Origin: a virus
Taxonomy: Duplodnaviria; Caudoviricetes
Length of the DNA: 64,000 nucleotides
IMG/VR virus record: IMGVR_UViG_3300037453_000316
Coordinates: 6,372 to 70,371 of that record
Reading direction: 5' to 3' (one strand)
The notes below the pieces were generated by a model, which was not told where the DNA came from, did no database searches, and worked only from the letters and a program-made list of their open reading frames with translations. Shown here in pieces: positions 3,632-58,467 of the stretch (position 1 is the first letter of the stretch; each line of letters opens with the position of its first letter). A program made the position numbers and the translations under genes.

Positions 3632-4198
3632 ATGATACAGAAATTCGATGAATATATCAAATCAAAGACCTGGAAAGACTTCGAGAAGGAACTTGTCACG
3701 ATAACGGTAAGATATATAGATTTTGACGACAACGAGAAAACGGGTGAAATAATCTGCAACAAATCCATAAAGAACGATTTGGAGGAAATCTTTGAAGAAC
3801 TATATCAGGAAAGATACCAGATATATAATATTTCACCGATTTCTGAATATGGAAACGATGACAAGCTCTCGATGGCCTCTAACAACACATACTGCTACTG
3901 CAAGAGGATAGTTGCAAACTCAAACAGATTGTCAAAGCACGGTATGGGGCTCGCCATAGACATAAACCCCGTCAACAACCCGTGTCTTTACATCGGTGAG
4001 GACGGCAATATAGACCGTGTTTGCCCGAACACAAGTGACGCCAAGAAAAACATAGAGAGGAAACAGAGTTCCGAACATCAGATAAACAAGTCCAGCATAA
4101 TATACAAACTCTTCATAGAACACGGATTCAGATGGGGAGGTGAGTTCAAGAACAAAAAGGACTACCATCATTTTGAAAAGATAACAAAAAACGAATAG
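3632..4198 (+). CDS. M15-family zinc peptidoglycan peptidase with capsid-targeting-like N-terminus
   Basis: SKHGMGLAIDINP and KDYHHFE zinc-ligand motifs; N-terminus MIQKFDEYIKS; late promoter at 3606. Confidence 0.85.
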   Translation: MIQKFDEYIKSKTWKDFEKELVTITVRYIDFDDNEKTGEIICNKSIKNDLEEIFEELYQERYQIYNISPISEYGNDDKLSMASNNTYCYCKRIVANSNRLSKHGMGLAIDINPVNNPCLYIGEDGNIDRVCPNTSDAKKNIERKQSSEHQINKSSIIYKLFIEHGFRWGGEFKNKKDYHHFEKITKNE

Positions 4199-4200
4199 AA

Positions 4201-4467
4201 ATGAAAAACATATTAGATTTTGACGATTATACGAAATCAAATAATTGTGATTGCTGTAACTCCGGCGAAGACAAAATGTGTGACATAAACGAACTTGCCG
4301 ACGGGATATACAAGGCGAGGTTCTACGACTGGATTTTCGAATTGGAAGACGGAAGGAAGTACAAGACACACTATGGTGTAAGGTGCAGTAGAAAATGTTC
4401 CAAGCTCACACAATATGAAGTAAAGGGAGGTGAGTTCACAGAAACGGACATAAATACAAATATATAA
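4201..4467 (+). CDS. Putative internal head protein
   Basis: N-terminus MKNILDFDDY; Cys-rich. Confidence 0.6.
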   Translation: MKNILDFDDYTKSNNCDCCNSGEDKMCDINELADGIYKARFYDWIFELEDGRKYKTHYGVRCSRKCSKLTQYEVKGGEFTETDINTNI

Positions 4468-4482
4468 GAACATATTCATATT

Positions 4483-5070
4483 ATGATAAAGAATTTTGAT
4501 GAATTTATAATTGAATCCGAAGGAAACAAACAAGTTGTAAAATATCGCTGGCTCGATTATTTCAATAATAGATGGTATGAGACAAAATGTGAAATCGTTT
4601 CACATACGGACAAAACCGCCCAGATAAAACTGCTTGAATTTGGTCCAAAGGGTTCAAGACCCGGAAGAGTGATGAGAGTACATCTGAATTCCCTGATAGG
4701 TTTCGATGATGGAAAACCAAAACCGGAACCGAATTTATCTTGGAGAAGATATACCGACCCCGATTTGTTCGGTGACAAAGATGATGACGATGATGTCAAT
4801 GAAAGTAAAAATCCGGTCGAAAGACAGACCGAAGCAAAGAACCTCGCCGAGATAGCGAAGAAATATTTCAAGAATAAAGACTTGGAGAATGCCGGAAAAG
4901 CCTGGTGTGAGATTTACGACCTGTACGATGATATGTACGACGAGGACACTCACAATGAGGAGGAACGGTTAAAACTGTTTTCAGATTTCCAGAAGATTAT
5001 GAGACTGTTCACCGACGATGAGGTCTTTGGAATAACGGACTACTTGAAAGAAAAGCATTTCAATAAATAA
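4483..5070 (+). CDS. Putative internal head protein (two modules)
   Basis: MIKNFDEFIIES N-terminus, internal VNES site, own late promoter at 4449. Confidence 0.65.
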   Translation: MIKNFDEFIIESEGNKQVVKYRWLDYFNNRWYETKCEIVSHTDKTAQIKLLEFGPKGSRPGRVMRVHLNSLIGFDDGKPKPEPNLSWRRYTDPDLFGDKDDDDDVNESKNPVERQTEAKNLAEIAKKYFKNKDLENAGKAWCEIYDLYDDMYDEDTHNEEERLKLFSDFQKIMRLFTDDEVFGITDYLKEKHFNK

Positions 5071-5097
5071 AAAAGGAGAGTTTTAAACTCTCCTTTT
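5071..5097. terminator. Bidirectional intrinsic terminator
   Basis: AAAAGGAGAGT-TTTA-AACTCTCCTTTT hairpin between convergent genes. Confidence 0.85.
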
Positions 5098-5117
5098 TAT
5101 ATTTTATATGATATTTA

Positions 5118-6467: not shown

Positions 6468-6469
6468 AA

Positions 6470-7234
6470 TTAAAATAATTTATTTTTATTTTCATTGTAC
6501 GAATCATATATTCGTTTTTTTGATATTTCAAAATAATTATAATCTTTTTCTATACCTATAAAATTTCTACCAACATTCATACAAGCAACACCACAACTAC
6601 CACTACCCATTGTATTATCCAATACAACATCATCCTCATTTGAATATGTTAGTATTAAATATTCAAGAAGTTTTATTGGTTTTTGTGTCGGATGCTCAGT
6701 TTTACCAAGAGGTTCTCTATTAAATTCTAAAATATCACAAGGGTATCTATACCCATCATCTTTATATGGTTTTATTTGTGTATTTGACTGTGCCGTTACT
6801 ATGGAATCAAACACTTTTCCTTTTTTTGGACTATTTGTTCTCAATGGGCCATTATGTTTTCTTTTTTGTGGATTATATGTACACTGTTTATCATAAAACA
6901 CAATAATATTCTCTGTAAGTTTTCCAGGTCTTTTTTTAAGAAGCATAAAATTAGTGGGTTTTTCTTTCACCCAATACAAATCATACTTATACCATTCAAA
7001 GTTAGATAATCTTAATTTTGATGAGAATGGTTCTGTTCCAAACAATAGAATTACACCATTTTCTTTTATTATTCTATTATAATGTTCCCACAATTTATCA
7101 AATGGTATAATAATATCCCAACTACATTTTGTTGTTCCATATGGAAGGTCACATAATATTAAATCTATTGAATGTTCTTTTATATCATTCATTATATCAA
7201 TACAGTCACCATTATATATATTATATTCTACCAT
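6470..7234 (-). CDS. Beta-class N4/N6 DNA methyltransferase (AT-rich insert)
   Basis: DLPYG, HPTQKP, LDNTMGSGS. Confidence 0.92.
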   Translation of the reverse strand: MVEYNIYNGDCIDIMNDIKEHSIDLILCDLPYGTTKCSWDIIIPFDKLWEHYNRIIKENGVILLFGTEPFSSKLRLSNFEWYKYDLYWVKEKPTNFMLLKKRPGKLTENIIVFYDKQCTYNPQKRKHNGPLRTNSPKKGKVFDSIVTAQSNTQIKPYKDDGYRYPCDILEFNREPLGKTEHPTQKPIKLLEYLILTYSNEDDVVLDNTMGSGSCGVACMNVGRNFIGIEKDYNYFEISKKRIYDSYNENKNKLF

Positions 7235-7893: not shown

Positions 7894-7911
7894 ATCTAAA
7901 ATATAACAAAA

Positions 7912-9789: not shown

Positions 9790-9921
9790 AACCTAAATAT
9801 AACAAACTATTTCAATTTAGGTATAAAATATTATGGCTCATTTGTAATAATAAAATATATCTTTTCAAAAAAAAACTTTTTTTCCTTTTTGTTATTTTTA
9901 AACTATAAATATCTTTGAATT

Positions 9922-11309: not shown

Positions 11310-11312
11310 AAG

Positions 11313-11340
11313 AAAAGGTGAGGATTTCCTCACCTTTTTT
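11313..11340. terminator. Bidirectional intrinsic terminator
   Basis: AAAAGGTGAGG-ATTT-CCTCACCTTTT. Confidence 0.85.
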
Positions 11341-12353
11341 TATTCCGTTATCATCTCCTTGACTTTCTTATAACTGAATTTTACTTTTGCACCATTTTCT
11401 GCATAAATCTTGAACATATTTGTTAGAATCTCTTCAAACTTCTCTTTTCCGAACAGTTTTTCGAAACCTTCAATATTTTTTCTCAACTTCTTTATATTTT
11501 CAGAATCTAACACTTGCGGGTCGTCGTCTCCGAACAATAATGTCGGTTGATATCGCTGACCTACATGACCGAGTGATATGACACAATTTTCATTCTCGAA
11601 ATGAAGATTCATTTCCAGCATATAGTCGTCTTCATCATGCCAGAAGGTCGACTTCATAATCGGACGGCTCACATCGTTGAATCTGTCGTTACCCTTGAAT
11701 GTATCACCGACTTTGAGTACAAATTCCGTTAGTATTACGAGATTTTTCTCCTCCTTTCCATATTTATCCATTTCCTTATAAATGGACTTCATATCCACTC
11801 CACTTCTTATAATTGCATCTATGGTATTTTTTCTGGATTTCTCGGAATCTTTATCTGTTTTCCTAATAACTCTTTCCACTTTCAATACATATTCGGCAAA
11901 CGAGGCGAAATCAACTTTATCCTTGTTCTTCGTCTTCTTATAGTGGTCGAGAATTTCTTCGATGGCGGTTATTGCTTTTTTTTCACTTTCACTCTCTTCC
12001 TCATATACCTCACGGTCGTAACCGTATTTTTTTACTTTATTACCGTTATATTTCAGCATCTCCTTGTAGGTCTCTATCGCCTTATCCATATCCAGCTTGC
12101 CGAGCAATTCCTTGTCTGTAAGTATGTCGTTACGTTGTGCATAGGTTGTACCACGTTTTTGTTCACTTTTTCTTGACAGATTGTCTATCGTTGACTCGCT
12201 TGCGTTGGCATAGAGGATGTACAGAAGTGCAAATTCCAGATGACTGTACTGACCCAATCCTTTTGTAATTTTTTTAAGCGACTGGTTTATGTCTTCAAGT
12301 TTCCTGGATGAAGTCTCCAGAATAAATTGTTCAAAAAGTTTAATCTTTTCCAT
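11340..12353 (-). CDS. Putative internal head protein
   Basis: MEKIKLFEQFILET N-terminus; late promoter at 12379. Confidence 0.65.
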   Translation of the reverse strand: MEKIKLFEQFILETSSRKLEDINQSLKKITKGLGQYSHLEFALLYILYANASESTIDNLSRKSEQKRGTTYAQRNDILTDKELLGKLDMDKAIETYKEMLKYNGNKVKKYGYDREVYEEESESEKKAITAIEEILDHYKKTKNKDKVDFASFAEYVLKVERVIRKTDKDSEKSRKNTIDAIIRSGVDMKSIYKEMDKYGKEEKNLVILTEFVLKVGDTFKGNDRFNDVSRPIMKSTFWHDEDDYMLEMNLHFENENCVISLGHVGQRYQPTLLFGDDDPQVLDSENIKKLRKNIEGFEKLFGKEKFEEILTNMFKIYAENGAKVKFSYKKVKEMITE

Positions 12354-12378
12354 AATTATTTTTTTTTTTATGATATTA

Positions 12379-12395: not shown

Positions 12396-12419
12396 ATATA
12401 TAAATACAACTAAAGAAGA

Positions 12420-14120: not shown

Positions 14121-15626
14121 ATGAAAAATATATTAAGTTTTGACGATTTTATTTTGAAAGAATCGATTCAACTGAATGAAGGTCTTTTGCAAAATCTTTT
14201 TGGCGCTCTATTCGGACATGATATGTGGAGTACTGTAAAAGGTGAAAATATCATAAAGGATGAGTTCAAAAAGATTGACGATAAATTGAACGGATTCAAT
14301 CTAACAAAGATAAAGAATCCGAATGCTTCACAGGATGTACGCCAGACTCTGGTCGACTGGGCTGATGAGATATATAAGGCCAAGAAAAAATTAAAGGAAG
14401 AAACGGATAAAGATAAGGAAGGTGATGATAAAGAAAAAGATAAGAAAGAAGATGGAAACAATATTCTTCCGGTATTGATTGGTTCGTTTAAATTTGAAGG
14501 TGATACAGAAGAGGCTATAAAAAAAGAAATAGAAAATAACGAAGAACTTAAAAAATTGTCGGAGAAAACCAAAGATGAAATTCTGACCGCTTGGAAAAAG
14601 GTTCAAGACGACAAGGAACTCTCAAAGAAACTCGATGAACTCAAGTCCGAAGTTGAAAAAATAGACAAGAAATATCAGAAAACCCTCGATGATGTGACTG
14701 GCAGTTCCGCCGACTTGAAGAGATGGGCGAATATTTTGAAGGACAGAATGAACGACATTATCGATAAGATTCTTTGTGGTAAATATGATGAAGACAGTGA
14801 ACTCGCAAAAGACCTTGAAAAGATACAAGGTGAGAAGGAGAAGAAACTCAAGGAGGAAAATGAAGAAGAAATAAAGATTGTCAATGAAAAAGCAAAAGTA
14901 ATTGATAAACAAAGAAAAGAATTATTTTCAAAATGTAACATAAAACCGACAGATAAGAAAACCGCACCGGAATTTCTCAATAATTTTGTGAAGGTGTTTG
15001 ATGATAAGAAACTTTATGAAAGTTTTGAGATGAAGAACTTGAAGGGTAAGAGTAAAATTTCACAAGACCATATTGATTTCTTCAAAGATTCTTTCGGAAT
15101 TGACATCAAAGATGATGCAGACAGAGAATCGGTTTTTAAAACAATGTACTGTATCAACAGAGATGTTCTTTCAGATATAGACGATAAAAATGTATTTTCA
15201 AACTTTGAAAAAATATCTGGTGAATCTATTCACGCTTTCTTTGTATCATATTGTAACTTATTGTTTTCTGCATCAAATACGGGAGACAAAGGAAAGTTGT
15301 CAAAGGAGATGACGGATTTCATAGCACACTGTGCAATGTCTTCAACAGTAGAGATAGGTTTCGGTTTACCTTTCACAAAAGAAACCGAAAATAATATACC
15401 AAAGGAAGGTGAGGAGGATGAGAGAGTTGGTATGTTGAATTATTATATCGGCAAGACACAAAAGGTTCTTGAAAAATCGAATGAGGGACAACCTATATCA
15501 AACGCATTGAGTAAACTTGTTGGTGATGTTGTGGAGGTCGCAAAGGAAATAAAAGAAAAATACGAAAAAGAACAGGAGAAAGAAGCCGACAAAGAAAAAC
15601 AAGAAGAAGAAAAGGAGGACAAATAA
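14121..15626 (+). CDS. Putative internal head protein, charged and helical
   Basis: MKNILSFDDFILKESIQLNEG; internal LYES. Confidence 0.65.
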   Translation: MKNILSFDDFILKESIQLNEGLLQNLFGALFGHDMWSTVKGENIIKDEFKKIDDKLNGFNLTKIKNPNASQDVRQTLVDWADEIYKAKKKLKEETDKDKEGDDKEKDKKEDGNNILPVLIGSFKFEGDTEEAIKKEIENNEELKKLSEKTKDEILTAWKKVQDDKELSKKLDELKSEVEKIDKKYQKTLDDVTGSSADLKRWANILKDRMNDIIDKILCGKYDEDSELAKDLEKIQGEKEKKLKEENEEEIKIVNEKAKVIDKQRKELFSKCNIKPTDKKTAPEFLNNFVKVFDDKKLYESFEMKNLKGKSKISQDHIDFFKDSFGIDIKDDADRESVFKTMYCINRDVLSDIDDKNVFSNFEKISGESIHAFFVSYCNLLFSASNTGDKGKLSKEMTDFIAHCAMSSTVEIGFGLPFTKETENNIPKEGEEDERVGMLNYYIGKTQKVLEKSNEGQPISNALSKLVGDVVEVAKEIKEKYEKEQEKEADKEKQEEEKEDK

Positions 15627-15627
15627 T

Positions 15628-16248
15628 ATGGATACGATTTTAAAATTTGAAGAATTTCTTCTGAATGAGAATAGGAAAAGACATATTCCGAAAGACATAC
15701 GAAAAAAAGTAATGGCGTTTCTCAAAAAGATAGACACCGACAAAATTAAAGGTCTAGTCAAAAATATTTTGAAAAATAAGGATAATTCGGTGTCTGAAAG
15801 TAAGAAAACACCGAAACTCGATATAAAGAAAGTAACGAAGTTCTTTTTTGATAGGATTGATTTTTCTATGGATGACAAATATCTTGACGATATAAATGAC
15901 GCTATTATTTCATTCACGAAATTTGCAAGAGATGAATTTAAAAAGTTGAAATCTGATGAAACGATATTCATTACATTCGCATCCATGATATATTGGGCGT
16001 ATTTCTGTTACTCGGGGGATGAGAAGTTCTTGAAGAGAAACGATATACTTGAATATTTGTTTTATGCGGCTCTTCCCGCCAAATATAATGACTTGCCCGT
16101 AGTTGATGATGACGAGGATAAGGACGAAGAGAAACAAAGGGGGTTATTCAGTTATTTCACCGATTATTTTGAAGAAGAGCTTTCAACGAGCGAGATACTT
16201 CCAAATATCAAGAAACTGGAAAAGAAGGTAGATGAAATGGGAAAATAA
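15628..16248 (+). CDS. Putative internal head protein
   Basis: MDTILKFEEFLLNEN. Confidence 0.65.
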   Translation: MDTILKFEEFLLNENRKRHIPKDIRKKVMAFLKKIDTDKIKGLVKNILKNKDNSVSESKKTPKLDIKKVTKFFFDRIDFSMDDKYLDDINDAIISFTKFARDEFKKLKSDETIFITFASMIYWAYFCYSGDEKFLKRNDILEYLFYAALPAKYNDLPVVDDDEDKDEEKQRGLFSYFTDYFEEELSTSEILPNIKKLEKKVDEMGK

Positions 16249-26368: not shown

Positions 26369-27157
26369 TTAAATAAAATCTCTGATGTCCACTCCGTTGT
26401 ATGCGTAATAGTCTGTTACTGCGTCATATTTGATTTCAAACTCACTTTTACCGTTATATAAAATGTCATCATCAAATTCATATTCCTTGTCATCGAAATA
26501 GAACGACATTTCTTCCAAATATCCACCCACAGTAACTTCTTCGTATCCACCTCTTCTTGGGTATGAATCATAAGATACTCCCAATTTCACATAACAAGTT
26601 ATCTTTTCACCGGATACTTCCATATTGATTTCGAATTCCACATCATTCTGGTCGTAATATTCGGCAAGATTTTCTTCTATGTAATCTTCTACATTTCTTG
26701 TTATTTCCCTTATGTTTTCCTTTGTGGCGAATCCTCTTAAAAATTTCCTTTTTTCCTGTTCATCATAAACGGTGTTTTCTGGTTTCGGGTGCAATACACC
26801 TTGGTTATACTTCCTTCTCTCCTTCTTCAATATTTTAAGTCTTTGCTTTAATGTTTCCCTGTCCATAGACTCGACTGAATCCTTCAGTGTATCGAAATTT
26901 TTCAATACGAGAAGTTTTCCGTTTTCAAGTTCAATATAGAATGTGGGTTCATCGTCGCCAAATCCGGAGTTCTTATATTTTTCCTTATATTCATCCCTGT
27001 CTCCCACCAAACCCAGTATATCACTGTCTTGTGTGTCATATAATATCCTCTTATCCCAATCATATTTCGGATAACCGTTCTGTTTTATGATTGTACGGAG
27101 TCTATTACTCTGGAAAGCCTCATTTATGAACTCTTCATATTTTTTTATGTATCCCAT
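26369..27157 (-). CDS. Putative internal head protein
   Basis: MGYIKKYEEFINEA; late promoter at 27179. Confidence 0.7.
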   Translation of the reverse strand: MGYIKKYEEFINEAFQSNRLRTIIKQNGYPKYDWDKRILYDTQDSDILGLVGDRDEYKEKYKNSGFGDDEPTFYIELENGKLLVLKNFDTLKDSVESMDRETLKQRLKILKKERRKYNQGVLHPKPENTVYDEQEKRKFLRGFATKENIREITRNVEDYIEENLAEYYDQNDVEFEINMEVSGEKITCYVKLGVSYDSYPRRGGYEEVTVGGYLEEMSFYFDDKEYEFDDDILYNGKSEFEIKYDAVTDYYAYNGVDIRDFI

Positions 27158-27267: not shown

Positions 27268-28974
27268 TTAGTAGAGATTTACACCCTTACCACACATTAC
27301 TTCAAAAGCATAGTAGTAAAGTTGTGGGTGATGTCCTGCACGAACAATAGCATAACGTGACTTCAATGAAGTTACAGGAGCACCTTCCATACCTTCTGCC
27401 GGATAAGAGAGCTTATCAGCCATCAAGTAAGGCATGAAAACGATACCTGGTTCATTGTCCTTACCCTTACGACCTACTACGATGTGACCATCTGTATAAG
27501 GCATATTCGGGTCAACATAGATGCTTACACCTGAAATTGCACCGATTGGGTAGAGAGAACCAGCGGTCTGGTTGATGGTGTTAGAAAGTGGATAAGCTGT
27601 GAAACCAGCACAATCCTGGATAGCGGCTGCGATACCTGCTGCACATACAGCGAAGGTACCAGCACCTCTACGACCTCTTTGAGCGATGAGTGTAGAAGCA
27701 GCGAGAATCTTCGAGTACAGTCTTCTCTGGATTGTACCGAGAGTTTCAGCACCACCTGCTACGAATACAGTTTCGTATCCTTCTGGCTTATCTTCATTCG
27801 GGTCAACGAAGAAGAATGTGTTAAGGTTGATACCTTCAAATGCAAGAGCTTCCTCGTGGTTCTTCCAACCAAGTTCGAAGATATTGTTCAACAACTCACG
27901 GTTGATGTGCTGTGTCAACTCGTTTACGAGTTCTGCTTCAACCTGTGCGAGAGCGTCAATACCGTAAGCCTTGAGGTCCTGAATCTGTTCACGAGTGATA
28001 GCACCCTTAACCTGAATGGTCTTGGCTTCTACCTTCTCGGTGAATACGTTCAATGACATCATATTACTTGGTGTTGATTCACCAGTTGCTCTGTCATAAG
28101 ACTGTGCTGACATAGGTTTGCCGTTCTTGAATCCAGCACCTGTGAAACCAGGGATGAAATCTTCGAGAGCCTTTACAGTGTCGATGTCGATAACATAGTA
28201 CTTTTCAGCAATCATTTTAGCATCGTCACCCATAAGAGTTTCTGCGAGAGTTATTGATGCACCTTCACCACCGTTCCACTTCTTTTCGTGCAATATCGTC
28301 TTTTCTTTTACTTGGAAGATAGGACGACCATCGATACGACCGAGAGCAACGAAAGTGAGTTCGTAATCACCAACTGTTATTGGAGCCATACCAGGTTGGA
28401 AAGTAGCTTGAAGGTCTTTAAAACTTGCGGCGTGATTTACAGCGTCATAGTCTGAATCAGAATCACTACCATCTGCTGTTGCAAGTGTCAACTTAACCAT
28501 AAGAGGAGCAGTTGTTGATTCATTACCTTCTGGCCATTTACCTTCAAAACGTGGGTTGATGTTAGTCTTACCACCTTCATAAACATAGTCCATATACTGA
28601 AGGATTCCGAGAGGACCTTGCATTGGAACTACTGGAACCAAGTCCAAAGCGATAGTCTGTGCAGCTACCTGTACAGCGAGAGGGAGAAGTGAGAATGGAT
28701 TATCACCACTACCACGTTGTCCGTCGTAACCGTTGTTAGGGTTAGCACCTGGGAAGAACATATCACCCATACCACCAACATTCATTCCTGGGTTAAGGTG
28801 AGCATATCCCATTACTGACTCATTAAGTTGTTTCTTTTCGTACATATCGTGATAAGCACAATATTTACTCATCCAAGTCAACTTGCTTCTATCAGTAATG
28901 CCAGTTGACTCGGTAATAAAACCTGACCAAGCCTTCATTGTTTCGGCTTCGTTCAAAATAACATTTTGTAACAT
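27268..28974 (-). CDS. gp23: Major capsid protein
   Basis: LVPVVPMQGPLG, EKVEAKTIQVK..TREQIQDLKA, ELTQHINRE, YMADK..LKSRYAI; two late promoters upstream. Confidence 0.95.
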   Translation of the reverse strand: MLQNVILNEAETMKAWSGFITESTGITDRSKLTWMSKYCAYHDMYEKKQLNESVMGYAHLNPGMNVGGMGDMFFPGANPNNGYDGQRGSGDNPFSLLPLAVQVAAQTIALDLVPVVPMQGPLGILQYMDYVYEGGKTNINPRFEGKWPEGNESTTAPLMVKLTLATADGSDSDSDYDAVNHAASFKDLQATFQPGMAPITVGDYELTFVALGRIDGRPIFQVKEKTILHEKKWNGGEGASITLAETLMGDDAKMIAEKYYVIDIDTVKALEDFIPGFTGAGFKNGKPMSAQSYDRATGESTPSNMMSLNVFTEKVEAKTIQVKGAITREQIQDLKAYGIDALAQVEAELVNELTQHINRELLNNIFELGWKNHEEALAFEGINLNTFFFVDPNEDKPEGYETVFVAGGAETLGTIQRRLYSKILAASTLIAQRGRRGAGTFAVCAAGIAAAIQDCAGFTAYPLSNTINQTAGSLYPIGAISGVSIYVDPNMPYTDGHIVVGRKGKDNEPGIVFMPYLMADKLSYPAEGMEGAPVTSLKSRYAIVRAGHHPQLYYYAFEVMCGKGVNLY

Positions 28975-31988: not shown

Positions 31989-33695
31989 TTATAGACCTCC
32001 GAAACCTCCGCCGCCTTCATCTTCGTCTTCGTCTTCTTTCTTTTTCTTCTTTTTTGATGGCTTGAAGTTTTCCTTTGGTTCACCTTCTATTATCTTTGCG
32101 ATATCCTCTTCCTTATATCCTTCTTCACGAAGTTCCTTCTCCTCCTTGAACCTCTTGTTTTCCTTGAGTTCCTCATCGGTAAGTCCGAACCATTTACGAA
32201 CCGCCCACTCGAAATCGAAGTAAGGTATCTGGTTACCTTCCTTGTCGGTTTCCACCATAGAACTCATAAGAGAACTTATGAAGTCAGACTGTTTCTGCAA
32301 GAACTCCATCTCCTTGTTCTTTTCAAACAATGAATCCGAATACCAATCCAGACCCATATTTACACGGAAATTTATATCCGTAGTAATTTCCGGATGTTTC
32401 AGACACATCTGAATATATAACGGCTTTATAAGGATTTCGGAGAAAATTGCACGAAGTCTCTTTACGAACTTCGAGAACCTTATCTCTTCACGGTTTATAC
32501 CTTCGGCGGAAAGTGTGAATGTTCCCTCACCCTGTTCTTTTTCGAAACGGGTGAAAGGTATCTTTGACGCCTGTCTTAACTTGTCACGGAAATACCTCAA
32601 AGTTTCGGTATCCGATATTTCAGGACCGTCACCTCCGATATTCTGTATCTGCGGGGTCTCACCACCTTCGGATGCCATAAAGATGTCCTTGTAGAACTGC
32701 AACATAGGACGACCGTTGGTTCTTATCTCACCGGAATCCCAGTCGAAGTCCACAAGTTCTTTGTAGTTCGACATCGCCTGTGCAAGTGTCTGACGACCTC
32801 TCGGTGACTGTACCGAACCGACCGGTATTATATATTGTGTCTTGTAGCTTGCGTTTGTAACCGCCCATATTATACGGGTGGCCTCCATAGTCCTCAATAT
32901 GTTGAATGAACGGATAAGTCTTTCCACATAGGATATTCTTGAAACGGCATCCGCCTTTGCATAGGCGAGGTATATAATCTGTGAGTCGTAAAGTATTCTG
33001 TCCTGTGTAACCGTTCCGTTTGGAGAGAACTGCTGGTTGACGAACCATATCTTTTCATTGGTGTTCGGGTCTATGCCCGGTGTGAGCATTGCTGGGTCAA
33101 GTTCAACGAAACCTATGATTTCGGTCTGTTCTTTGTTGTAAACTATTTCAAATGCAAGGAAACCGTCTATCAACCATTTACGGAAATAATCTGTGGCTTG
33201 AACAGTATCATAGAATCCGAAATAGTTATAGAGCTTATTATACTCTTCGTTCATTTCGTCGATTATACTCTGTTCAACCTTGTAGTTTAGTTTTGAAGAT
33301 GCAAATTTGTTCGCCCCGTCAAAGCATACACACTCCTCACATATTATATCAAGTATCTCCTCGATTTCATCCTGTAGTGCATATCGTCTCAACTGCTCCT
33401 TTTTCTTGGCGTAGTTTTCTTCCGATAGGTTGAAATACCCCTTTGATAACGAAGGGTCGGTCGATGACATTCTTGCAAACAATACTTGAACCGCTTCATC
33501 GTTTAACGAACCTACTTGTGAAGAAGTGGGGTTCGATGTCATAACTTGCCTTTGCAAATCCAAATCCTGAGAACGGACATTCTTTATAATGTCATCCTTA
33601 TAGTTCATACCGAAAGATGAGAGTTTCCTCAACATCCTTCTTACCGGATTCGGATTTATGGTATTGTTTCTATTATTTCCAGTAAAACCTGACAT
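31989..33695 (-). CDS. gp20: Portal protein
   Basis: RRYALQDEIEEILDII, WLIDG, SYVERL, IIWAV, REEIRFSKFVKRLR. Confidence 0.92.
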   Translation of the reverse strand: MSGFTGNNRNNTINPNPVRRMLRKLSSFGMNYKDDIIKNVRSQDLDLQRQVMTSNPTSSQVGSLNDEAVQVLFARMSSTDPSLSKGYFNLSEENYAKKKEQLRRYALQDEIEEILDIICEECVCFDGANKFASSKLNYKVEQSIIDEMNEEYNKLYNYFGFYDTVQATDYFRKWLIDGFLAFEIVYNKEQTEIIGFVELDPAMLTPGIDPNTNEKIWFVNQQFSPNGTVTQDRILYDSQIIYLAYAKADAVSRISYVERLIRSFNILRTMEATRIIWAVTNASYKTQYIIPVGSVQSPRGRQTLAQAMSNYKELVDFDWDSGEIRTNGRPMLQFYKDIFMASEGGETPQIQNIGGDGPEISDTETLRYFRDKLRQASKIPFTRFEKEQGEGTFTLSAEGINREEIRFSKFVKRLRAIFSEILIKPLYIQMCLKHPEITTDINFRVNMGLDWYSDSLFEKNKEMEFLQKQSDFISSLMSSMVETDKEGNQIPYFDFEWAVRKWFGLTDEELKENKRFKEEKELREEGYKEEDIAKIIEGEPKENFKPSKKKKKKEDEDEDEGGGGFGGL

Positions 33696-36699: not shown

Positions 36700-37884
36700 C
36701 TAATATTTATAGACGTGATTATCTACACTGTCAAGAATATCCCAAATGTATGCTTCAAGCGTTTCTTCAACACTATCAACAAGGTCAAACAAATTACTTG
36801 TCGAAACAGCACCACTCCTATTGTTGTGCCATTTTACTAAAATAATATTTTCTGCCTTGTCATAACACAACGATGTGGCTACTTCATATTCTTTACTCCG
36901 GAAGAGGGAAACGTCTCTATCCTCGATAGTACCATCTAGTTGTATTTCACCATCCTTTGTAAATCCACACCCATCTATCGTAGATATGATTTTCCACACT
37001 TCTTGTGGTTCATCTTCCAATTCCAGCAGATTGATTTCTTCATCATTTTCAAAATGAACCATCAAATAATTATAGCTATTTATTTCTATATAGTCCGCCG
37101 AAGACCCGTTTTTTGTATATTTTCCATTCAATTCTATAATACTGTCTTCCCAGTCTTCATTGATTTGTTTGGTGTATCTGAAATTTCTTGACTCCTCAAA
37201 ATAATATCCTATTGTTCCATCCGGCTGAATCGGATATATTTCAAAAGAAGGGTCTGTGGGTTTTTTCTGTTTAAGGAGTTCTGCAAAGTAACGTCCGGTA
37301 GGTATTTTACTAGTTACATCACCCACTTCAAAGAACTCGTGCCATTCTTTACTCAAAGGTCTCCTATCGTTCTCGTCCCTGCAAGTATTGTATCTTACTT
37401 TTCCTCTTTCCGTCCTTTTCATCAGACACACACCGTCCTCTGCGTTGTATATATAGTTTTTAAGAGGTTCGAGTTCCACCTTGTTATATCTATTGTTCGC
37501 CCAGTTTATTTTGTCGAGTTCATCCTGGTCAATTTCCTGTGCTATATTATTGAGATTCGGTCTCTTTATTTCCCATCTATCCCAAGGTGCCTTCTTTATA
37601 AAAGTATCGTCACCAGTCTCGAGATATTCCAATAATAACATTTTCTTTGCAAATTCTATGTTCTTCGGGTCAATATCCTTTTCGTGAAAATGTGAAGTTA
37701 TTATAAGAGTCATATCAGAACCATCCTTCTTTGTAATTATCTTGTTAAACTGATGTCCTTTGCCTCTGTCGTCTATATAAGTCCATCCGAGTTTCTTCAT
37801 ATCCCTTATGAAATCCGATGTCGGATAGTTTCTCTTCGCTTCGTTTAACGATATAAATTCGTCAAAGTTAAGTATGTTTCCCAT
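36700..37884 (-). CDS. Putative internal head polyprotein with N-terminal HicA-like domain
   Basis: MGNILNFDEFISLNEA; DFIRDMKKLGW..RGKGHQF..SHFHEKDI; internal FEES/INED; late promoter at 37908. Confidence 0.55.
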   Translation of the reverse strand: MGNILNFDEFISLNEAKRNYPTSDFIRDMKKLGWTYIDDRGKGHQFNKIITKKDGSDMTLIITSHFHEKDIDPKNIEFAKKMLLLEYLETGDDTFIKKAPWDRWEIKRPNLNNIAQEIDQDELDKINWANNRYNKVELEPLKNYIYNAEDGVCLMKRTERGKVRYNTCRDENDRRPLSKEWHEFFEVGDVTSKIPTGRYFAELLKQKKPTDPSFEIYPIQPDGTIGYYFEESRNFRYTKQINEDWEDSIIELNGKYTKNGSSADYIEINSYNYLMVHFENDEEINLLELEDEPQEVWKIISTIDGCGFTKDGEIQLDGTIEDRDVSLFRSKEYEVATSLCYDKAENIILVKWHNNRSGAVSTSNLFDLVDSVEETLEAYIWDILDSVDNHVYKY

Positions 37885-43221: not shown

Positions 43222-44694
43222 ATGAGGAACATACTCAATATAGACCAGTTTCTTCTGCTTGAATCGAAGGAGGATAAGACGAGGAGGATGCTAAAGTCAA
43301 GGGGATACGAAAACACTACGGAAATAATAAACGCTGTAAAACACGATTTCTCCGAACTGGAACATTCCGATAGACCGGCCTATAAGTTCCTTTATGCTAT
43401 ATGCCGTATGTATGTCGATGGTGAATTTCGTGACGCCAATGATATATCCACTATGAATTCTATGTTGAAGACCATATCGGTTGAACCTCACTTGTCTGAG
43501 TACGACCATAACCTCAACGGATTAAGTAAAGATGAGATTATCAGAAGATTCACTCCCATACAACAGAAGGAGAATGAGGATGAGATAAACTTCGTTAAAA
43601 GGATGAAGTTCGAGGGGGGTAGCGACTACGAGATAGTAAAGATAGACTCATACAGTCAAGCTGCTAAATATAAAAGGTTTGCTCCTTGGTGTGTTGCCGA
43701 TGAGCAAAGACATTTCGATTCATACTCCTGTGATGGAATAAACCAGTTTTATTTCTGTCTGAAAAGGGGGTTTGAAAGTGTTAAAAGGAATGATACTAAC
43801 GCACCCCTCAACGAGTATGGTCTCTCTATGATTTCAGTCTGTGTCGACTATAATGGAATGCCCCTTTTTGTAACCACTAGATACAACCACGATTTCGACG
43901 GAGAAAACAACGAAGAGTTGTGTAAACCTAGACAAGTCAGCGAAGTGATAAATATGAACTTCTTTGAAGTCTTTAAACCTTCACCGTTGGGTTTGAGATT
44001 GAACAAATATGAAATTAATTCAAAACTTGAAAAAGGCATCGATATCAATTCATTGTTTGACAAAACCTATAAAATAACAGATGGTTTTTATGCAGTCAGT
44101 GTCAAGAAAAAACAATCTCTCGTTTATAAGAACAAACTGATTACAGATTGGTTTGACAAAAATTTATTAGATGTCAAAAAAATAAAACTCATAGGTGAAA
44201 AAGACAACAAACCAATCATTGAATATGACGATGACATATATTTAACAGACAAAAACTTAAGAACAATACCGATTTATTTCAGTGTTGTAAAAGGTAATTT
44301 TGGATGTTCAGTCAATCAACTCGAATCGCTGGAAGGTTGTCCGGAAGAGGTCGGTGGTACTTTTGATTGCAGTGACAATAACTTAAAGTCATTAAAAGGA
44401 GCCCCGAGAAAAGTCGGTGGTAGTTTTATTTGCAATACGAATGACTATCTTACATTACTGGAAGGTTGTCCGGAAGAGGTCGGCAAAAATTTTGACTGTA
44501 GTGGTAATTCATTGGAGTCATTAAAAGGAGCCCCGAGAAAAGTCGGTGGTTATTTTGATTGTTCAATGAACCAACTTAAATCACTGGAAGGTTGTCCGGA
44601 AGAGGTCGGCGGTGATTTTAATTGTAGTTATAACAATTTGACATCACTTGAAGGTGCTCCGAGAGTGGGTGGTAGAATTATAAATAACATATAA
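43222..44694 (+). CDS. Putative internal head protein with C-terminal LRR-like (SLEGCP) repeats
   Basis: MRNILNIDQFLLLES; about 6 repeats of L.SL.G.P..VGG.F.CS.N; late promoter at 43196. Confidence 0.75.
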   Translation: MRNILNIDQFLLLESKEDKTRRMLKSRGYENTTEIINAVKHDFSELEHSDRPAYKFLYAICRMYVDGEFRDANDISTMNSMLKTISVEPHLSEYDHNLNGLSKDEIIRRFTPIQQKENEDEINFVKRMKFEGGSDYEIVKIDSYSQAAKYKRFAPWCVADEQRHFDSYSCDGINQFYFCLKRGFESVKRNDTNAPLNEYGLSMISVCVDYNGMPLFVTTRYNHDFDGENNEELCKPRQVSEVINMNFFEVFKPSPLGLRLNKYEINSKLEKGIDINSLFDKTYKITDGFYAVSVKKKQSLVYKNKLITDWFDKNLLDVKKIKLIGEKDNKPIIEYDDDIYLTDKNLRTIPIYFSVVKGNFGCSVNQLESLEGCPEEVGGTFDCSDNNLKSLKGAPRKVGGSFICNTNDYLTLLEGCPEEVGKNFDCSGNSLESLKGAPRKVGGYFDCSMNQLKSLEGCPEEVGGDFNCSYNNLTSLEGAPRVGGRIINNI

Positions 44695-46364: not shown

Positions 46365-48143
46365 ATGAACTATTACAATAAAGGATATATGCCATTGAAC
46401 GAAAGCAAGAAGGCTGTTGATATACAAGTGGTTTTTCTTAGTTCGAGGGCAGAAAAGACAACAAAGAGTTCAAACTCTATGTTTTTCTTCGAGGATGCCG
46501 CAAAGAAAGCGGGTCTCAAAATGGTGACGATAGACCCGAGTTCATCCTCAATAAGAAAGAACAGTGAAGATTCGTACAGCGTCATCGAAGAAAACGGTGG
46601 AAGTAAGAAGACATATGTCTTGAAACCATCGAACACGATAGTTGTTCCGAGAAGAACGGTTTTAAAAAACAGCGAATCGAAAGAGTTTATGCAGGACTTA
46701 CAAACTTACGGGTTCTTCTGTCTGAATACATTGGATTCAATTGAAACCTGTGAGGACAAATTCTTGACATACAAGAAACTCAAAAATTCGGGAGTTCCAA
46801 CTCCAAAGACTACCGTTATAACATCGTCTTCAATGAACAAACTTGAAGACAAGGTTCAGACCATCGGAGGCAAATTCCCGATAGTATGTAAGATACTGAA
46901 CGGAACACAAGGTGTCGGTGTGTTTATCATCGACTCTATGATGAGTCTCCGTTCAACACTTCAGACCATGTTCAAGATTTCACCGAAATCTGATATCATC
47001 CTTCAGGAGAAGATTGACTCCGACTATGATTTGAGAATACACGTTATGTACAATGGTTTTGAAAGAATGACTTCCGGTCTTGACGGTTTCGAAATAATCG
47101 GATGTATGAAGAGAAACCAGCTCGCCGGCGATTTCAGAAGCAACTATTCTCTCGGTTCAACTGCCGAAAAGGGAACATTGACACCGGAACAGGAGAAAAT
47201 CGCAAAGATGGCCGCAAAGGCTACGGGTTGTCGTTGGTGTGGTGTAGACTTGATTGTATCAGGAACAACAAAGCAGCCTTATGTAATAGAGGTTAACTCA
47301 TCACCAGGCACAAAAGGTATCACTACCGCCGCCGGTGATGATGTCGTAGGAACTCTGTTCAATATGTTCAAGGACTTCAAGTACACGAAATATGAATCCG
47401 AACAGATTGGAAGTTACGAAACAATCACCATAAAGGATATAACGAAGGAAAATCCTAACCTCGATGTTGCAATAAGATTTGATTCCGACAAGATGTTTAC
47501 AGAACTCGAATGTTCATCGGTAAATGCAAAGGATGAAGATGTTTCATTTGTATTCAACGGAGTAACATATAACAGAGAACTTGTGGGTTTGAAGAAAAAC
47601 GAACCTATGGTCGAGTTGAACCTCAAATTCAACGGAACAATATACAAGAACGAACTTGTGATATTGAAACAGATAAACGACAATATCAACAAGAACCATA
47701 TGGTCGGAGGTTCAAAGCTCATCAACCGTATAGCCAACAACGCCGTCATCATAGACCAGCCGTTCTATCTGACCGACAACACAACGGGTTTTGATGTTCC
47801 GAAGAAACCGATAGACGAATCGCTTCTTTTCGAAAGCAAACTGGATATGGCGTTTAAGGTGAGCAAGAACGAAGTGAATCTTATGAACCTCAAAACTATA
47901 TTAAACACATTCGTAAGCGGTACGAGAAACGAATATGTGAAGGGAAAGTTCGGAATAGACGCAACGGATTCAAACAACTGGGAAATCAAGTATAACAACC
48001 AGCCTTTCCTTGAGTGTAAAAACACAGACATCAAGTTTATGCACAATTCGTTCCCATATGAAATCGCTTGCAAAATCGCCGGTGTAATAGAATCCATACT
48101 TCCTACGGAAGTCGATATGTCGGTATATCCGGAAAACGAATAA
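46365..48143 (+). CDS. rimK: RimK-family ATP-grasp ligase fused to a degenerate retropepsin-like domain
   Basis: CEDKFLT, FPIVCKILNGTQGVGV, LQEKID, DFRSNYSLG, GVDLI..EVNSSPG; C-terminal domain aligns with the N-terminal half of 48384..49328. Confidence 0.88.
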   Translation: MNYYNKGYMPLNESKKAVDIQVVFLSSRAEKTTKSSNSMFFFEDAAKKAGLKMVTIDPSSSSIRKNSEDSYSVIEENGGSKKTYVLKPSNTIVVPRRTVLKNSESKEFMQDLQTYGFFCLNTLDSIETCEDKFLTYKKLKNSGVPTPKTTVITSSSMNKLEDKVQTIGGKFPIVCKILNGTQGVGVFIIDSMMSLRSTLQTMFKISPKSDIILQEKIDSDYDLRIHVMYNGFERMTSGLDGFEIIGCMKRNQLAGDFRSNYSLGSTAEKGTLTPEQEKIAKMAAKATGCRWCGVDLIVSGTTKQPYVIEVNSSPGTKGITTAAGDDVVGTLFNMFKDFKYTKYESEQIGSYETITIKDITKENPNLDVAIRFDSDKMFTELECSSVNAKDEDVSFVFNGVTYNRELVGLKKNEPMVELNLKFNGTIYKNELVILKQINDNINKNHMVGGSKLINRIANNAVIIDQPFYLTDNTTGFDVPKKPIDESLLFESKLDMAFKVSKNEVNLMNLKTILNTFVSGTRNEYVKGKFGIDATDSNNWEIKYNNQPFLECKNTDIKFMHNSFPYEIACKIAGVIESILPTEVDMSVYPENE

Positions 48144-48216: not shown

Positions 48217-48387
48217 ATGGGATGTAACTGTAATAAAAACGATTCAATTCCTCTTTCTGTAAAAAAGGAAAAGAGGAGAGGCCTTAAAGAGAAGATAAAT
48301 GAAATAAAGAAACTCTGGAAGGAAAGTAAAACTGTTGAAACATCGGGAAGCGTCACTGTAAACAAAGATGAACTTGGATTCAAATGA
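48217..48387 (+). CDS. Small basic late protein (MGCNC...)
   Basis: In-frame ATG at 48217 just after the late promoter 48204-48211; INE site. Confidence 0.6.
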   Translation: MGCNCNKNDSIPLSVKKEKRRGLKEKINEIKKLWKESKTVETSGSVTVNKDELGFK

Positions 48388-49328
48388 AGAGAATAAAGAC
48401 ATATGAGGAATTTATAAACGACAATCTAACAGAATCATCAAAGAGGAACGGTAAGGAAGTTATTGGTTTCAAGGAAGTGGTGGAAATTGTCGGTATCGGA
48501 AATATGAAGGCGAAATTCGACACCGGTAATACGGCCTATTCGGCAATCATAGTACAGGATTATTATGAAAAGGACGGCAAGGTGAAGTTTGAAATCAACA
48601 AAAAGGAATACGAATATCCCGTTGAAAAGCATGTCAGAATATGGCATCACGGAAAATCTACGGAGAGACCCGTGATAAAGGTTGATTTGATTTTCAACGG
48701 AACGACATACAAGGATGAACTTGTTGACTTGAAAATTTCGGATTTGACCGGAACGAAAAATTACAGAAGCAGAATGCTCATTTGCAAGAAGTTTATGGAA
48801 AAGGCCAATGTTCTCATTGACCCGAGCAAGGACTTCAAGCTCACCGATAAGAAAGATATTGACAAACCGAAAAAGAAAAAGAAGAAAATAAACGAAGGTC
48901 TTGAGGAAAACCCCGTATCTATGACCACAAAAGGTACGAGTGACGCCATAGACATAGATTTCAAGATTGGAAGCGATATAATCGGAGGAGCGATTATAAC
49001 ATTCCAGTATATTGACGGTATTATAGATGAATATTTGGAATCCGTAGATGATTTCGATGAAAGCGTTTTCAGAAAATTCGATAGTAACCAGAAACTATAC
49101 AACCTTGAAGACTTCTGGATAAACAAGGATTTCAGGGGAAAAGGTTATTCAAAACTCTGTCTTGAAAGAATGATGGAGAAATACGGAGACAAACAAATGG
49201 TACTCCGTGCCTTTCCGGATGGAGGGGTAGATGAAGACACCCTTGTAAGAATATATAGTAGACACGGTTTTGTTGTGTTGCAACCCACAATGAACGATGG
49301 AACAATAATGGGAAAATTTATAAAATAA
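48384..49328 (+). CDS. RimB-like retropepsin protease fused to a GNAT acetyltransferase; capsid-targeting-like N-terminus
   Basis: MKRIKTYEEFIND..LTES; KAKFDTGN..SAI; linker KKINEG; GNAT motif A FRGKGYS and YSRHGF. Confidence 0.8.
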   Translation: MKRIKTYEEFINDNLTESSKRNGKEVIGFKEVVEIVGIGNMKAKFDTGNTAYSAIIVQDYYEKDGKVKFEINKKEYEYPVEKHVRIWHHGKSTERPVIKVDLIFNGTTYKDELVDLKISDLTGTKNYRSRMLICKKFMEKANVLIDPSKDFKLTDKKDIDKPKKKKKKINEGLEENPVSMTTKGTSDAIDIDFKIGSDIIGGAIITFQYIDGIIDEYLESVDDFDESVFRKFDSNQKLYNLEDFWINKDFRGKGYSKLCLERMMEKYGDKQMVLRAFPDGGVDEDTLVRIYSRHGFVVLQPTMNDGTIMGKFIK

Positions 49329-55405: not shown

Positions 55406-55424
55406 ATACAGTAAATATAACAAA

Positions 55425-56195
55425 TCAAAACAAACTGACGACAGATTTTTCATCATCTATCCTTCTTGTCGCTTTCTCGAAGTATTCCCTTTCAAGTTCA
55501 AACCCGATGAAATTCCTTTTCTCCCTTATGCAAGCGACTGCGGTTGTACCGCTACCCATACAGTTGTCGAGAACCAAATCACCTTCGTTTGTATATGTCC
55601 TTACTAGATATGATATAAGTTCGACGGGTTTCTGTGTGGGGTGGAATGTCCTGCAATGCTCCTTTTCAACATCTATTATGCTTGTCGGATATTTCATTCC
55701 GGACAAATCGTCTTCTGCAAGCGAAGCGTCAAATTTACCGTAGCACTGGTTTTTCTGTTCACTCTTGACATTTCCACGAGAATGGTTCTTTGCACCCTTC
55801 ACCTTCTGTGGATTGTATGTGGGAAGTTTCTTGTAGAAAACAGCGATGTCCTCGTGGTTACGAAGAGGCATCCTGTTTGAATTTAAGAAACCGGTTGCAC
55901 GGTTTCCTTTTTTCCAGATAAGGTTATACCTCCACATCGAGGGGTTGCTCATCATAAGTTGTGCGGTGAACATACCTTGGCAAAACAATACTATTGCACC
56001 ATTGTCCTTTATAATCCTGTTATATTGTTCCCACAACTTGTCAAACGGTATTATCGTGTCCCATCTTGCACTTTCGTTTGTTTTGTTTAAAACATTATAG
56101 GGCAAATCACAGATGATACAGTCTATCGAACCGTCATCTATTCCTTTCATACCTTCAAGACAATCTTCGTTATATATTCTATTAAGTTCCAACAT
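55425..56195 (-). CDS. Beta-class DNA methyltransferase
   Basis: DLPY, HPTQKP, DNCMGSGTT. Confidence 0.92.
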   Translation of the reverse strand: MLELNRIYNEDCLEGMKGIDDGSIDCIICDLPYNVLNKTNESARWDTIIPFDKLWEQYNRIIKDNGAIVLFCQGMFTAQLMMSNPSMWRYNLIWKKGNRATGFLNSNRMPLRNHEDIAVFYKKLPTYNPQKVKGAKNHSRGNVKSEQKNQCYGKFDASLAEDDLSGMKYPTSIIDVEKEHCRTFHPTQKPVELISYLVRTYTNEGDLVLDNCMGSGTTAVACIREKRNFIGFELEREYFEKATRRIDDEKSVVSLF

Positions 56196-56259
56196 ACTCT
56201 AAATATAACAAAAAAGGGAAGATTTTTTCTTCCCTTTCTTTTTTTACCTTTATCTTTTT

Positions 56260-58467
56260 TTAACTCTGCTCTCTTTCTGAATCCTGAAGCATATCGTCAA
56301 GAATAAGTTCTTTCCAGTCTTGTTCCGTATTTTCACTCGAAGATATGTAATCTCTCAATGATGTAATTGTGGCGAATGATATTTTACCATACTTTTCCGT
56401 ATCTGTGTCATATTTACCCGCCATAACTTCCTCCATATATTGCATTACATTTTCAATATTGGAATTTTCCGCCTTTCCTTCTTTTGGAAGAACCCTGCAA
56501 TCATCGGATAGACTTTCATTTTCAATATCCCTCTTGATTCTTATCTTCAACCATTCCCATACAACATTTGGTCTAGGACTGATATCAATTATCGATATAC
56601 GTCTTGAAAGACCGCCCCAGTGAGGACCGACAATTCTACTGTTCATAAAATTCGAAATCGTTTCGTTTGTGAGAAAAACTATGAAACCATTAAATGTGAA
56701 ACGGTTCGGGAAATGTTCCTGTTGTCTCTCTTCTGCATATTCTTCAAACTGTTTTGCGGCCAGAGAACGAAGTTCACTTTCAGACCTAGGTATATAGTCT
56801 GCGTATCTCGCTTTCTTGGCGGACTCGTTTCTACCCATCTCTCTCACCTTATTGTCTATCCACACCTTTCTCTCATAGTCCGATATCGAACCGACTTCAA
56901 GATAATATCTCTGGTGTCTGTCAACCTTTCCACCGATTACATTATAATACTCGCTTCCGAGTGAACCACTAGTACTTCCGGCAGTCAAACCCTTAGCACT
57001 CGGGGTGTCTATCTGTCTTGATGATTCATCCGAACTGGTCGCTTGTTTAAGTAAACTTACCTTATCTTGGTCTTCCCATAATGAATTTGTATCATCATAT
57101 ATGATTACCATATCATTATATTTGTAAAGATTCTTATAAACTGTCTGTGCCGTACCGACGGAGTTTAATTTTATATAGTCTATATTTTCACGAGCGTTGG
57201 TTTCCGCTATGGCTTGGTTTACAGCGACAGTCTTACCGATACCACCCATACCTGTTACCATAAGGCCTCTATGTGATGACATAATACCTCTCAATTTTTC
57301 AGCGGTACCACCTTCACCACCTTCCTTCACATAATTCAACATGGCCTTCATAAACTTCTTCTCACGTTCAAGCCTGCTGTCAAGTTTCTTAACCTCAAGT
57401 TCAATCTTACTTTCACTTTCCATAACTTTCCAGAGATGGTCTCTCGAATCGAGATAAACACTGAGTTTTCCGGATTTACCACCTTCCCAGAACCAACAGT
57501 CCCTCATAATCTTTCTACTTGCCATATTGAAACCTTCGTCAAAACCACATAGTATGCAGTGTACAACACCCGTTACCCTTCCGGCGTTTGTCGGGTCAAG
57601 TTCACCCTTCGAGGTATAGTATATGGCGTCTTGAACGGTTTTAAAAGGACTACCCTCTTCAAAAGGTTCGGATGTCATATATTTTGAAATGCTTGAATCA
57701 TCATATTTTTCAAAAAGTTCCAAATATTTAACAACATCTTCCCTGTTAAGTTCATATGATTCATCTCTCCTTCCGCTGCTACCAATTTCCGGACCCATAA
57801 TCTTTCCCACAATTACTTTAGGGGAACCGTCCGTTCTTATGGACACTTCACCGGGCATCAATATGGATTTTGTCGGTCTTGCTTTAAGCCCCTTTGTTCC
57901 GGATGCTTCCTCACCCTCTTCCGCTGGAGCGGGTTCTTTCGCTTCAATGATTATATCGGATTTACCATCCATCAATTTGATTGTATTGACAAGTGTATAA
58001 ATCATAGAAAGGAAACCTAGTTTATTTGTCGATACGGAGAATGTCGGTTTTATTGAGATATTCAAAGGATTCTCTGTAAATAAACCTATTTTCTTTTCCA
58101 TACCAATCTTCGTCAGTACAAGATAAATATCGTTTTTCTTATTGTAAACCATTGTTGCGTCATTCCCATCAGTGTTAAAGATATAAGGATATACAGTCCA
58201 ATCCGCTTCGAAATTCTTTCTGATGTGCTTTATGACAATGTTGGTGATTTTAACGAGGTATTTATCATCTGAAATAAATCTCGGTTTTTTAAAATCCGTA
58301 TTTTCGTCTTCATAATAGTTGTCCCAGAATTCCTTATCAAGAGAACCTCCCGTTTCGATACTTTCCGTAGGAATATACTTCGGGTCAAGCTGACCTTCCG
58401 CTTCATTACTCTCAAAAAGGTTTCTGCTATCTGATTTCTTCAAAAATTCACTGAAACTTTCAATCAT
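56260..58467 (-). CDS. Large P-loop ATPase-domain protein with capsid-targeting-like N-terminus
   Basis: MIESFSEFLKK..LFES; Walker A TGMGGIGKT, Walker B VIIYDD; late promoter at 58494. Confidence 0.7.
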   Translation of the reverse strand: MIESFSEFLKKSDSRNLFESNEAEGQLDPKYIPTESIETGGSLDKEFWDNYYEDENTDFKKPRFISDDKYLVKITNIVIKHIRKNFEADWTVYPYIFNTDGNDATMVYNKKNDIYLVLTKIGMEKKIGLFTENPLNISIKPTFSVSTNKLGFLSMIYTLVNTIKLMDGKSDIIIEAKEPAPAEEGEEASGTKGLKARPTKSILMPGEVSIRTDGSPKVIVGKIMGPEIGSSGRRDESYELNREDVVKYLELFEKYDDSSISKYMTSEPFEEGSPFKTVQDAIYYTSKGELDPTNAGRVTGVVHCILCGFDEGFNMASRKIMRDCWFWEGGKSGKLSVYLDSRDHLWKVMESESKIELEVKKLDSRLEREKKFMKAMLNYVKEGGEGGTAEKLRGIMSSHRGLMVTGMGGIGKTVAVNQAIAETNARENIDYIKLNSVGTAQTVYKNLYKYNDMVIIYDDTNSLWEDQDKVSLLKQATSSDESSRQIDTPSAKGLTAGSTSGSLGSEYYNVIGGKVDRHQRYYLEVGSISDYERKVWIDNKVREMGRNESAKKARYADYIPRSESELRSLAAKQFEEYAEERQQEHFPNRFTFNGFIVFLTNETISNFMNSRIVGPHWGGLSRRISIIDISPRPNVVWEWLKIRIKRDIENESLSDDCRVLPKEGKAENSNIENVMQYMEEVMAGKYDTDTEKYGKISFATITSLRDYISSSENTEQDWKELILDDMLQDSEREQS

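Follow-up and report, generated by a model that had tools for sequence, protein, structure and literature searches.

Capsid targeting in T4 and its probable counterpart in a giant phage

In phage T4, proteins are loaded into the head by a short N-terminal tag, of which the first 10 residues suffice for loading, and mutagenesis has assigned targeting mainly to residues 4 and 7 and processing to residues 8 and 10 (PMC9026906). The internal-protein genes of T-even phages are variable and have only the targeting sequence in common, an arms-race role has been proposed for these variable proteins, and the capsid tag has already been suggested to be a general loading route of T4-like phages (PMC3012670, PMC9026906). 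Here we describe a leader shared by eleven otherwise unrelated proteins that are encoded in a window of 64,000 nucleotides, which corresponds to bases 6372-70371 of a 70-kb virus contig (IMG/VR record IMGVR_UViG_3300037453_000316). An initial annotation of this window had noticed the leader and had interpreted it as a signal for capsid loading. By analogy with T4, this common N-terminus is very probably a T4-type capsid targeting sequence, and the eleven tagged late proteins are most likely packaged in the head and probably injected.

Giant phages of the phiKZ type package a number of processed head proteins comparable to the one found here (PMC9026906). In phiKZ, 201phi2-1 and SPN3US, many head-internal proteins are also cut after Glu by a gp21-related protease. 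However, their propeptides mostly exceed 100 residues, do not contain a common short tag and end in an S/A-x-E motif, whereas the leaders described here have 11-19 residues and an I/L-x-E motif. We found no paper describing such a tag in giant phages of Bacteroidota, and it is absent from the Jug-phage paper (PMC12880540) and from the overview of jumbo phages (PMC7824862). For T4 and the T-even phages, a capsid tag that is portable between diverse cargo proteins is established, and what is new is the enlarged, enzyme-rich cargo set in a lineage of giant phages.

A common leader on eleven unrelated proteins

After one to three residues, all 11 proteins present the motif I-x-x-[FY]-[DE]-[DEQ]-[FY]-[IL], and every N-terminus listed in the initial annotation was found at its coordinates and on its strand. 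A position-specific scoring matrix of 9 columns was made from these N-termini, which scored between 8.9 and 21.4 bits in leave-one-out. When the ~21,000 positions of all called proteins were scanned, the top 11 were exactly the 11 N-termini, compared with ~0.1 N-terminal matches expected by chance, and only two internal positions exceeded 10 bits, one in a helix of a DNA methylase (53886-54644) and one in a small protein (44734-45042). Scanning every ATG, GTG and TTG of the 70-kb contig did not reveal any further credible leader gene. A profile scan had been suggested for the whole genome and its relatives; run on the contig, it confines the motif to N-termini, and in relatives the motif is kept on different cargo. 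The match in the methylase (minus strand, 17.2 bits), which begins at an internal Met 70 codons past the start and hence lies in the gene body, was read as probably due to chance.

The leader is short and amphipathic on an acidic background, with hydrophobic residues at i, i+3, i+6 and i+7. Its conserved positions coincide in register with the determinants of the T4 tag, that is, two aromatics three residues apart, I/L, and Glu two residues on, the first aromatic being present in 10 of the 11 leaders and the second in all of them. Six or seven core residues are in common between the T4 tag and the proteins encoded at 26369 and 48384 (genes are named here by their first coordinate). The T4 sequence quoted in the initial annotation was correct, as IPII and IPIII start with MKTYQEFIAE, and IPI starts with a related 19-residue version of the tag. 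The likeness to T4 includes a short N-terminal tag on unrelated proteins, an S77 protease with a Gp23-type head, late expression (here predicted from a promoter motif), and a tag ending in the protease motif I/L-x-E, here in 9 of 11 proteins. In contrast to T4, the core of the leader is preceded by 1-3 additional residues and by an Ile that is conserved, protease and scaffold form a single fusion protein, and the cargo is acidic to neutral, reaches 735 aa and includes enzymes. The T4 internal proteins IPI-III proper are small, basic, abundant and associated with DNA, whereas the proteins tagged here have 88-735 aa and, in their mature form, a pI of 4.7-8.2; it is the tag, and not the protein family, that is in common. 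As a separate observation, T4 gp61.1 (T4 18966-19130), a hypothetical protein of 54 aa whose gene adjoins that of DNA primase, has the same first seven residues as IPI.

The eleven proteins had been described as otherwise unrelated, and this was borne out: once the first 25 residues were removed, no pair was similar (all BLASTP E > 0.4), and the domains detected differ. Seven of them have no recognizable domain. On the plus strand, 3632..4198 encodes a protein of 188 aa, residues 96-183 of which form a Peptidase_M15_4 domain, of the type found in cell-wall peptidases. It is followed by 4201..4467 (88 aa, Cys-rich) and by 4483..5070 (195 aa). The protein of 337 aa at 11340..12353 (minus strand) has no known domain and a cleavage-type site after residue 13, and that of 501 aa at 14121..15626 (plus strand), also without known domain, has such sites after residues 14 and 20; the second gene of the latter operon, 15628..16248 (plus strand), encodes 206 aa. 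The gene at 26369..27157 (minus strand, 262 aa) adjoins the capsid gene. An AlphaFold model of its product (pLDDT 68) presents the leader as a short helix, at residues 7-14, preceding the body, and Foldseek gave no match of this model in the PDB. For the protein of 394 aa at 36700..37884 (minus strand), the only match was a weak, sub-threshold one to HicA, and a protein-atlas search gave nothing. Leucine-rich repeats are found at about residues 361-456 of the 490-aa protein at 43222..44694 (plus strand). The protein of 314 aa at 48384..49328 (plus strand) has a retropepsin-like PF05618 domain and matches to GNAT acetyltransferases below the Pfam cut-off; its gene is the last one of an operon opened by a RimK-type ATP-grasp ligase (46365..48143, plus strand), which itself bears no leader, although a cleavage-type site lies close to its N-terminus. 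Finally, 56260..58467 (minus strand) encodes a P-loop NTPase of 735 aa, in which the Walker A motif is located at residue 406 and a run resembling Walker B at about residues 456-460. Sequence searches of 14121, 36700 and 56260 against solved structures returned nothing.

Conservation of the leader on changing cargo

The phage under study is an uncultured, giant, T4-like member of the T4 superfamily. The 70-kb contig was rated 19% complete, which points to a genome of ~360 kb, and 20 related contigs are present in IMG/VR. Among sequenced phages, the best capsid-protein matches were the uncultured LR756500 (462 kb, 45% identity), the Lak megaphages of Prevotella (34%), Tenacibaculum phage PTm1 (29%) and phage PAU (28%). 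The latter was named Sphingomonas phage PAU, although its true host is a Sphingobacterium (PMC3738902). The nearest isolates of the lineage infect Bacteroidota. T4 is too distant to be recovered, as no Escherichia phage was found with the capsid protein by tblastn at E <= 1e-5. Also, the tail region gave no megablast match to isolated phages, and the window gave no hit when scanned for Rfam families and tRNAs.

The relative G001 has 363 kb, is 96% complete and encodes a capsid protein with 89% identity; the leader is present on 17 of its 467 genes, a count obtained after correcting three mis-called starts. The leader occurs on ~13 genes of G002 (345 kb, capsid protein 78% identical), mostly encoding different small proteins, and on ~24 genes of LR756500, as M-K-[YF]-I-x-x-Y-[ED]-[ED]-F-[IL]-x-E and with many genes in tandem arrays. 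The initial annotation had claimed that the cargo is larger than in T4, and this agrees with 11 tagged genes in the window and ~17 per genome in the near-complete relative, as against 3-4 in T4, where 4 genes were found with the T4 form of the tag. Because this relative totals ~17, the window already holds most of the tagged set.

At least 10 genes of PAU begin with M-K-T-[IL]-x-x-L-Y-E, compared with 0 for a control pattern. Among these genes are the annotated scaffold and gp154, which is annotated in GenBank as 'internal capsid protein', and an L-N-E site follows the variant in gp153 and gp154. PAU belongs to the same broad group as the phage under study and differs from it in the wording of the leader; we found no publication describing the PAU leader. 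A strict DNA pattern of the leader was not enriched in Lak-A1, PTm1, PAU or T4, and the tags of PAU and T4, which are worded differently, were found with patterns of their own. The core of the T4 tag outlasts recognizable similarity of the capsid protein, which suggests that the docking site on the prohead core is very conserved.

The tag is kept while the cargo changes. Homologues of the retropepsin cargo (48384) were found on many contigs of 250-400 kb, and the leader was kept in 108 of 120 clusters, with bodies down to 57% identity. In the family of 26369, leader and site were kept in all seven sequences, i.e., the window copy and the six known homologues. Conversely, 15628 has no counterpart in G001, the products of 4483, 14121 and 56260 are strongly diverged from those of G001, and G001 holds tagged genes that are absent from the window contig. 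A tagged protein of 199 aa in G001 is constituted of two modules joined by an in-frame linker with a cleavage-type site, whereas in the window the same modules are the separate genes 4201 and 4483. At their junction, a stop codon, a CATAAATA promoter (4449-4456) and a new leader are located exactly at the module boundary. Such a module, split from a tagged carrier and bearing its own tag, is what a loading signal would predict. This turnover of cargo under a constant tag resembles that of the T-even internal proteins. However, the latter are from close relatives of T4 in enterobacteria, whereas the phages compared here are uncultured, have 345-460 kb and have their nearest isolates on Bacteroidota.

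Two further observations were made in relatives. In LR756500 (L046 = 1-20000; L055, L061), genes lying upstream of tagged ones frequently have the same C-terminal wording, D-D-F-G-F-[LF]-D-N, and the paralogues of the tandem arrays may have both ends in common. In Lak-A1, the genes at 3527-4690 (plus strand) and 28460-29509 (minus strand), near the capsid gene, have a common N-terminus M-N-K-x-I-K-x-L-[IL]-E-[SN]-L-F-D-D, possibly the form that the tag takes in Lak phages.

Late-type promoter motifs of the tagged genes

Each leader gene had been claimed to lie behind a late promoter or within a late operon, and this was found to hold. Seven leader genes have CATAAATA upstream, 14121 has the variant AATAAATA, and 4201, 15628 and 48384 each come immediately after a late gene or overlap with one. 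The copy of CATAAATA at 3606..3613 (plus strand) lies 26 nt before gene 3632, and the other copies precede the genes starting at 4483, 12353 (minus strand), 27157 (minus strand), 37884 (minus strand), 43222 and 58467 (minus strand). The distance from CATAAATA to the start codon is 26-34 nt for these seven leader genes, and 26-36 nt when the sheath, protease and portal genes are included. For the tube gene this distance is 61 nt, and the capsid gene has two copies of the motif, at 94 and 161 nt. The association between leader and CATAAATA was significant in the contig (Fisher p = 0.001) and in G001 (7.6e-5). A second promoter motif, TTGTTATATTT, precedes genes of topoisomerase II, a RecA-like protein, a phosphoesterase and DNA methylases. 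None of the genes behind TTGTTATATTT has a leader, in agreement with the statement of the initial annotation that no early gene starts this way. The T4 late promoter is TATAAATA, and the labels 'late' and 'early' are deduced from gene content and from the resemblance of CATAAATA to this sequence. As CATAAATA is common to both, the tagged proteins are predicted to be expressed together with the head proteins.

Independently of the leader, six genes (3583, 7893, 9789, 41882, 56195 and 63671, all on the minus strand) were observed to have TTGTTATATTT beginning at a distance of exactly 16-17 nt from their start codon, on its upstream side. This spacing leaves almost no 5' untranslated region, so that the transcripts of these six genes may be leaderless or nearly so. 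Also, bases 1-5187 of the contig (minus strand), upstream of the window, contain one open-ended gene of at least 1729 codons that lies behind CATAAATA, has no leader and is cut by the contig end. The ORF-poor look of the 5' end of the contig was considered as an anomaly and rejected, this region being a single giant open-ended late gene.

Head module, protease and cleavage-type sites

The proposed loading route needs a protease of the gp21 family, and the phage encodes one within a T4-type head module. The gene at 29868..31934 (minus strand) encodes a prohead protease (S77, gp21 family; Pfam Peptidase_S77) fused to a repeat-rich scaffold, 688 aa in total, which is presumed to be both the enzyme that removes the leader and the core on which it docks. 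The protease part aligns with T4 gp21 (BLASTP E = 5e-7) and retains the His and Ser motifs, which we take to be the catalytic residues of this family; it has no direct sequence match among solved structures. The module also comprises the major capsid protein (27268..28974, minus strand; Pfam Gp23) and a T4-type portal protein (31989..33695, minus strand; Pfam Portal_T4). The tail tube is encoded at 16295-16897 and the tail sheath at 18092-21244.

The protease-scaffold contains 17 sites of the type [IL]-x-E-[SATGN], compared with 3.6 expected from its composition. Eight tandem repeats of 14 residues (30426..30845, minus strand) form part of the scaffold, and most of them have a cleavage-type site, so that the scaffold looks designed for being cut into very short peptides. 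The capsid protein presents three cleavage-type sites within its first 52 residues. The phage thus has a maturation machinery of T4 style, and the assumed cutting rule fits the expected substrates. When cleavage-type sites ([ILVF]-x-E-[SATGN]) were searched within residues 7-26, they were found in 9 of 11 leader proteins compared with 7 of the 71 others in the contig (p = 1.8e-6). The corresponding counts were 12/17 versus 54/450 in G001, and 18/27 versus 64/656 in LR756500.

The small protein encoded at 44734-45042 (plus strand, 102 aa), mentioned above for its internal leader-like motif (13.7 bits), also has a very basic patch. At its N-terminus, a cleavage-type site is followed by a stretch that resembles the mature N-terminal arm of the capsid protein.

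Proposed loading route and alternative roles of the leader

By analogy with T4, we propose that the tagged proteins would be made late in infection, together with the head proteins, and that the amphipathic leader would dock each of them on the core of protease-scaffold that is enclosed by the assembling shell of the capsid. The S77 protease would then cut after the Glu of [IL]-x-E, which would release the mature protein inside the head, and would also chop the scaffold. The released proteins would remain in the head with the DNA and would most likely exit with it at the next infection.

Several points weigh against this proposal. Genes 3632 and 4201 encode no canonical cleavage site after the leader. 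If cargo bodies were exposed to the protease, avoidance of sites would be expected in them, and the result was mixed across genomes and was not used as support: 7 sites were found versus 12.7 expected in the contig and 7 versus 20.7 in LR756500, but 23 versus 19.8 in G001. PTm1, although of the same broad group, is devoid of such a leader, with 11 loose matches for 6.8 expected. Mature cargo proteins range from acidic to neutral (pI 4.7-8.2) and reach 716 aa, unlike the small basic internal proteins of T4. Also, the early and late labels of the promoters depend on gene content, and both the phage and the relatives of its lineage are uncultured, their proteins being known here from sequence alone. 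Lastly, some tagged members may belong to the prohead core and be broken down instead of being delivered.

This last point can be extended to the whole set, in which case the leader would mark components needed to assemble the prohead core, comparable to T4 gp22, gp67 and gp68; these would be degraded and expelled at maturation, and the tagged proteins would be scaffolding. The annotated scaffold of PAU itself bears the PAU version of the leader, and more distant relatives encode, near their head genes, a leader protein of 97 aa that has several cleavage-type sites and resembles T4 core proteins. However, the tagged set includes enzymes and large folded proteins (the M15 peptidase, the retropepsin-like protein with GNAT-like matches, the P-loop NTPase and the leucine-rich repeat protein), and each of these has 0-3 internal sites versus 17 in the scaffold. 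Moreover, close relatives differ in their tagged sets, as would be expected of accessory cargo more than of indispensable parts of the core. Such a role is plausible for some members and, because internal sites are few, fits the enzymes poorly; as an explanation of the whole set we consider it unlikely.

It is far less probable that the leader is recognized by another partner, such as the modifying enzyme of a RiPP-like radical-SAM system, or that it is a signal for another location in the cell. A Radical_SAM (PF04055) search gave no match in the contig or in G001, whereas all control genomes were positive, and a tag linked to such an enzyme was excluded on this basis. The acidic, amphipathic leader is not a secretion or lipoprotein signal, and it matches the T4 determinants and then a protease motif.

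The least probable explanation is an mRNA-level element of late genes, for instance a context for translation start where the host lacks Shine-Dalgarno sites. The 5' ends of the coding regions are indeed AT-rich and no Shine-Dalgarno sequence is visible upstream, but the sheath, tube, capsid and portal genes have the same promoter and no motif, and codons at the conserved positions vary by synonymous and conservative changes (TTT/TTC/TAT, GAT/GAC/GAA/GAG, ATA/ATT/CTT/TTG), which leads us to set this element aside and indicates that selection acts on the leader peptide and not on the RNA.

Significance for giant phages of Bacteroidota

Returning to capsid targeting as the preferred role of the leader, we put forward, tentatively, that the late promoter and the leader constitute a small portable cassette able to turn any gene into virion cargo, and that one address label is used across the T4 superfamily, from coliphages to the giant phages of gut and rumen Bacteroidota. 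If this is true, the full complement of proteins that uncultured huge phages inject would be readable from sequence alone, and the cargo would act on the host ahead of all phage transcription. Such early-acting cargo would include a cell-wall peptidase, the retropepsin-like protein with GNAT-like matches encoded after the RimK ligase in the same operon, a P-loop NTPase and a leucine-rich repeat protein. The tag is also a ready candidate for protein-delivery experiments in Bacteroidota phages. For the uncultured giant phages that are associated with Bacteroidota of gut and rumen, it offers a sequence-only route to a list of candidates for head packaging and injection. Such proteins, most of which were found here without known fold or family, are prime candidates for counter-defence and host-takeover factors.

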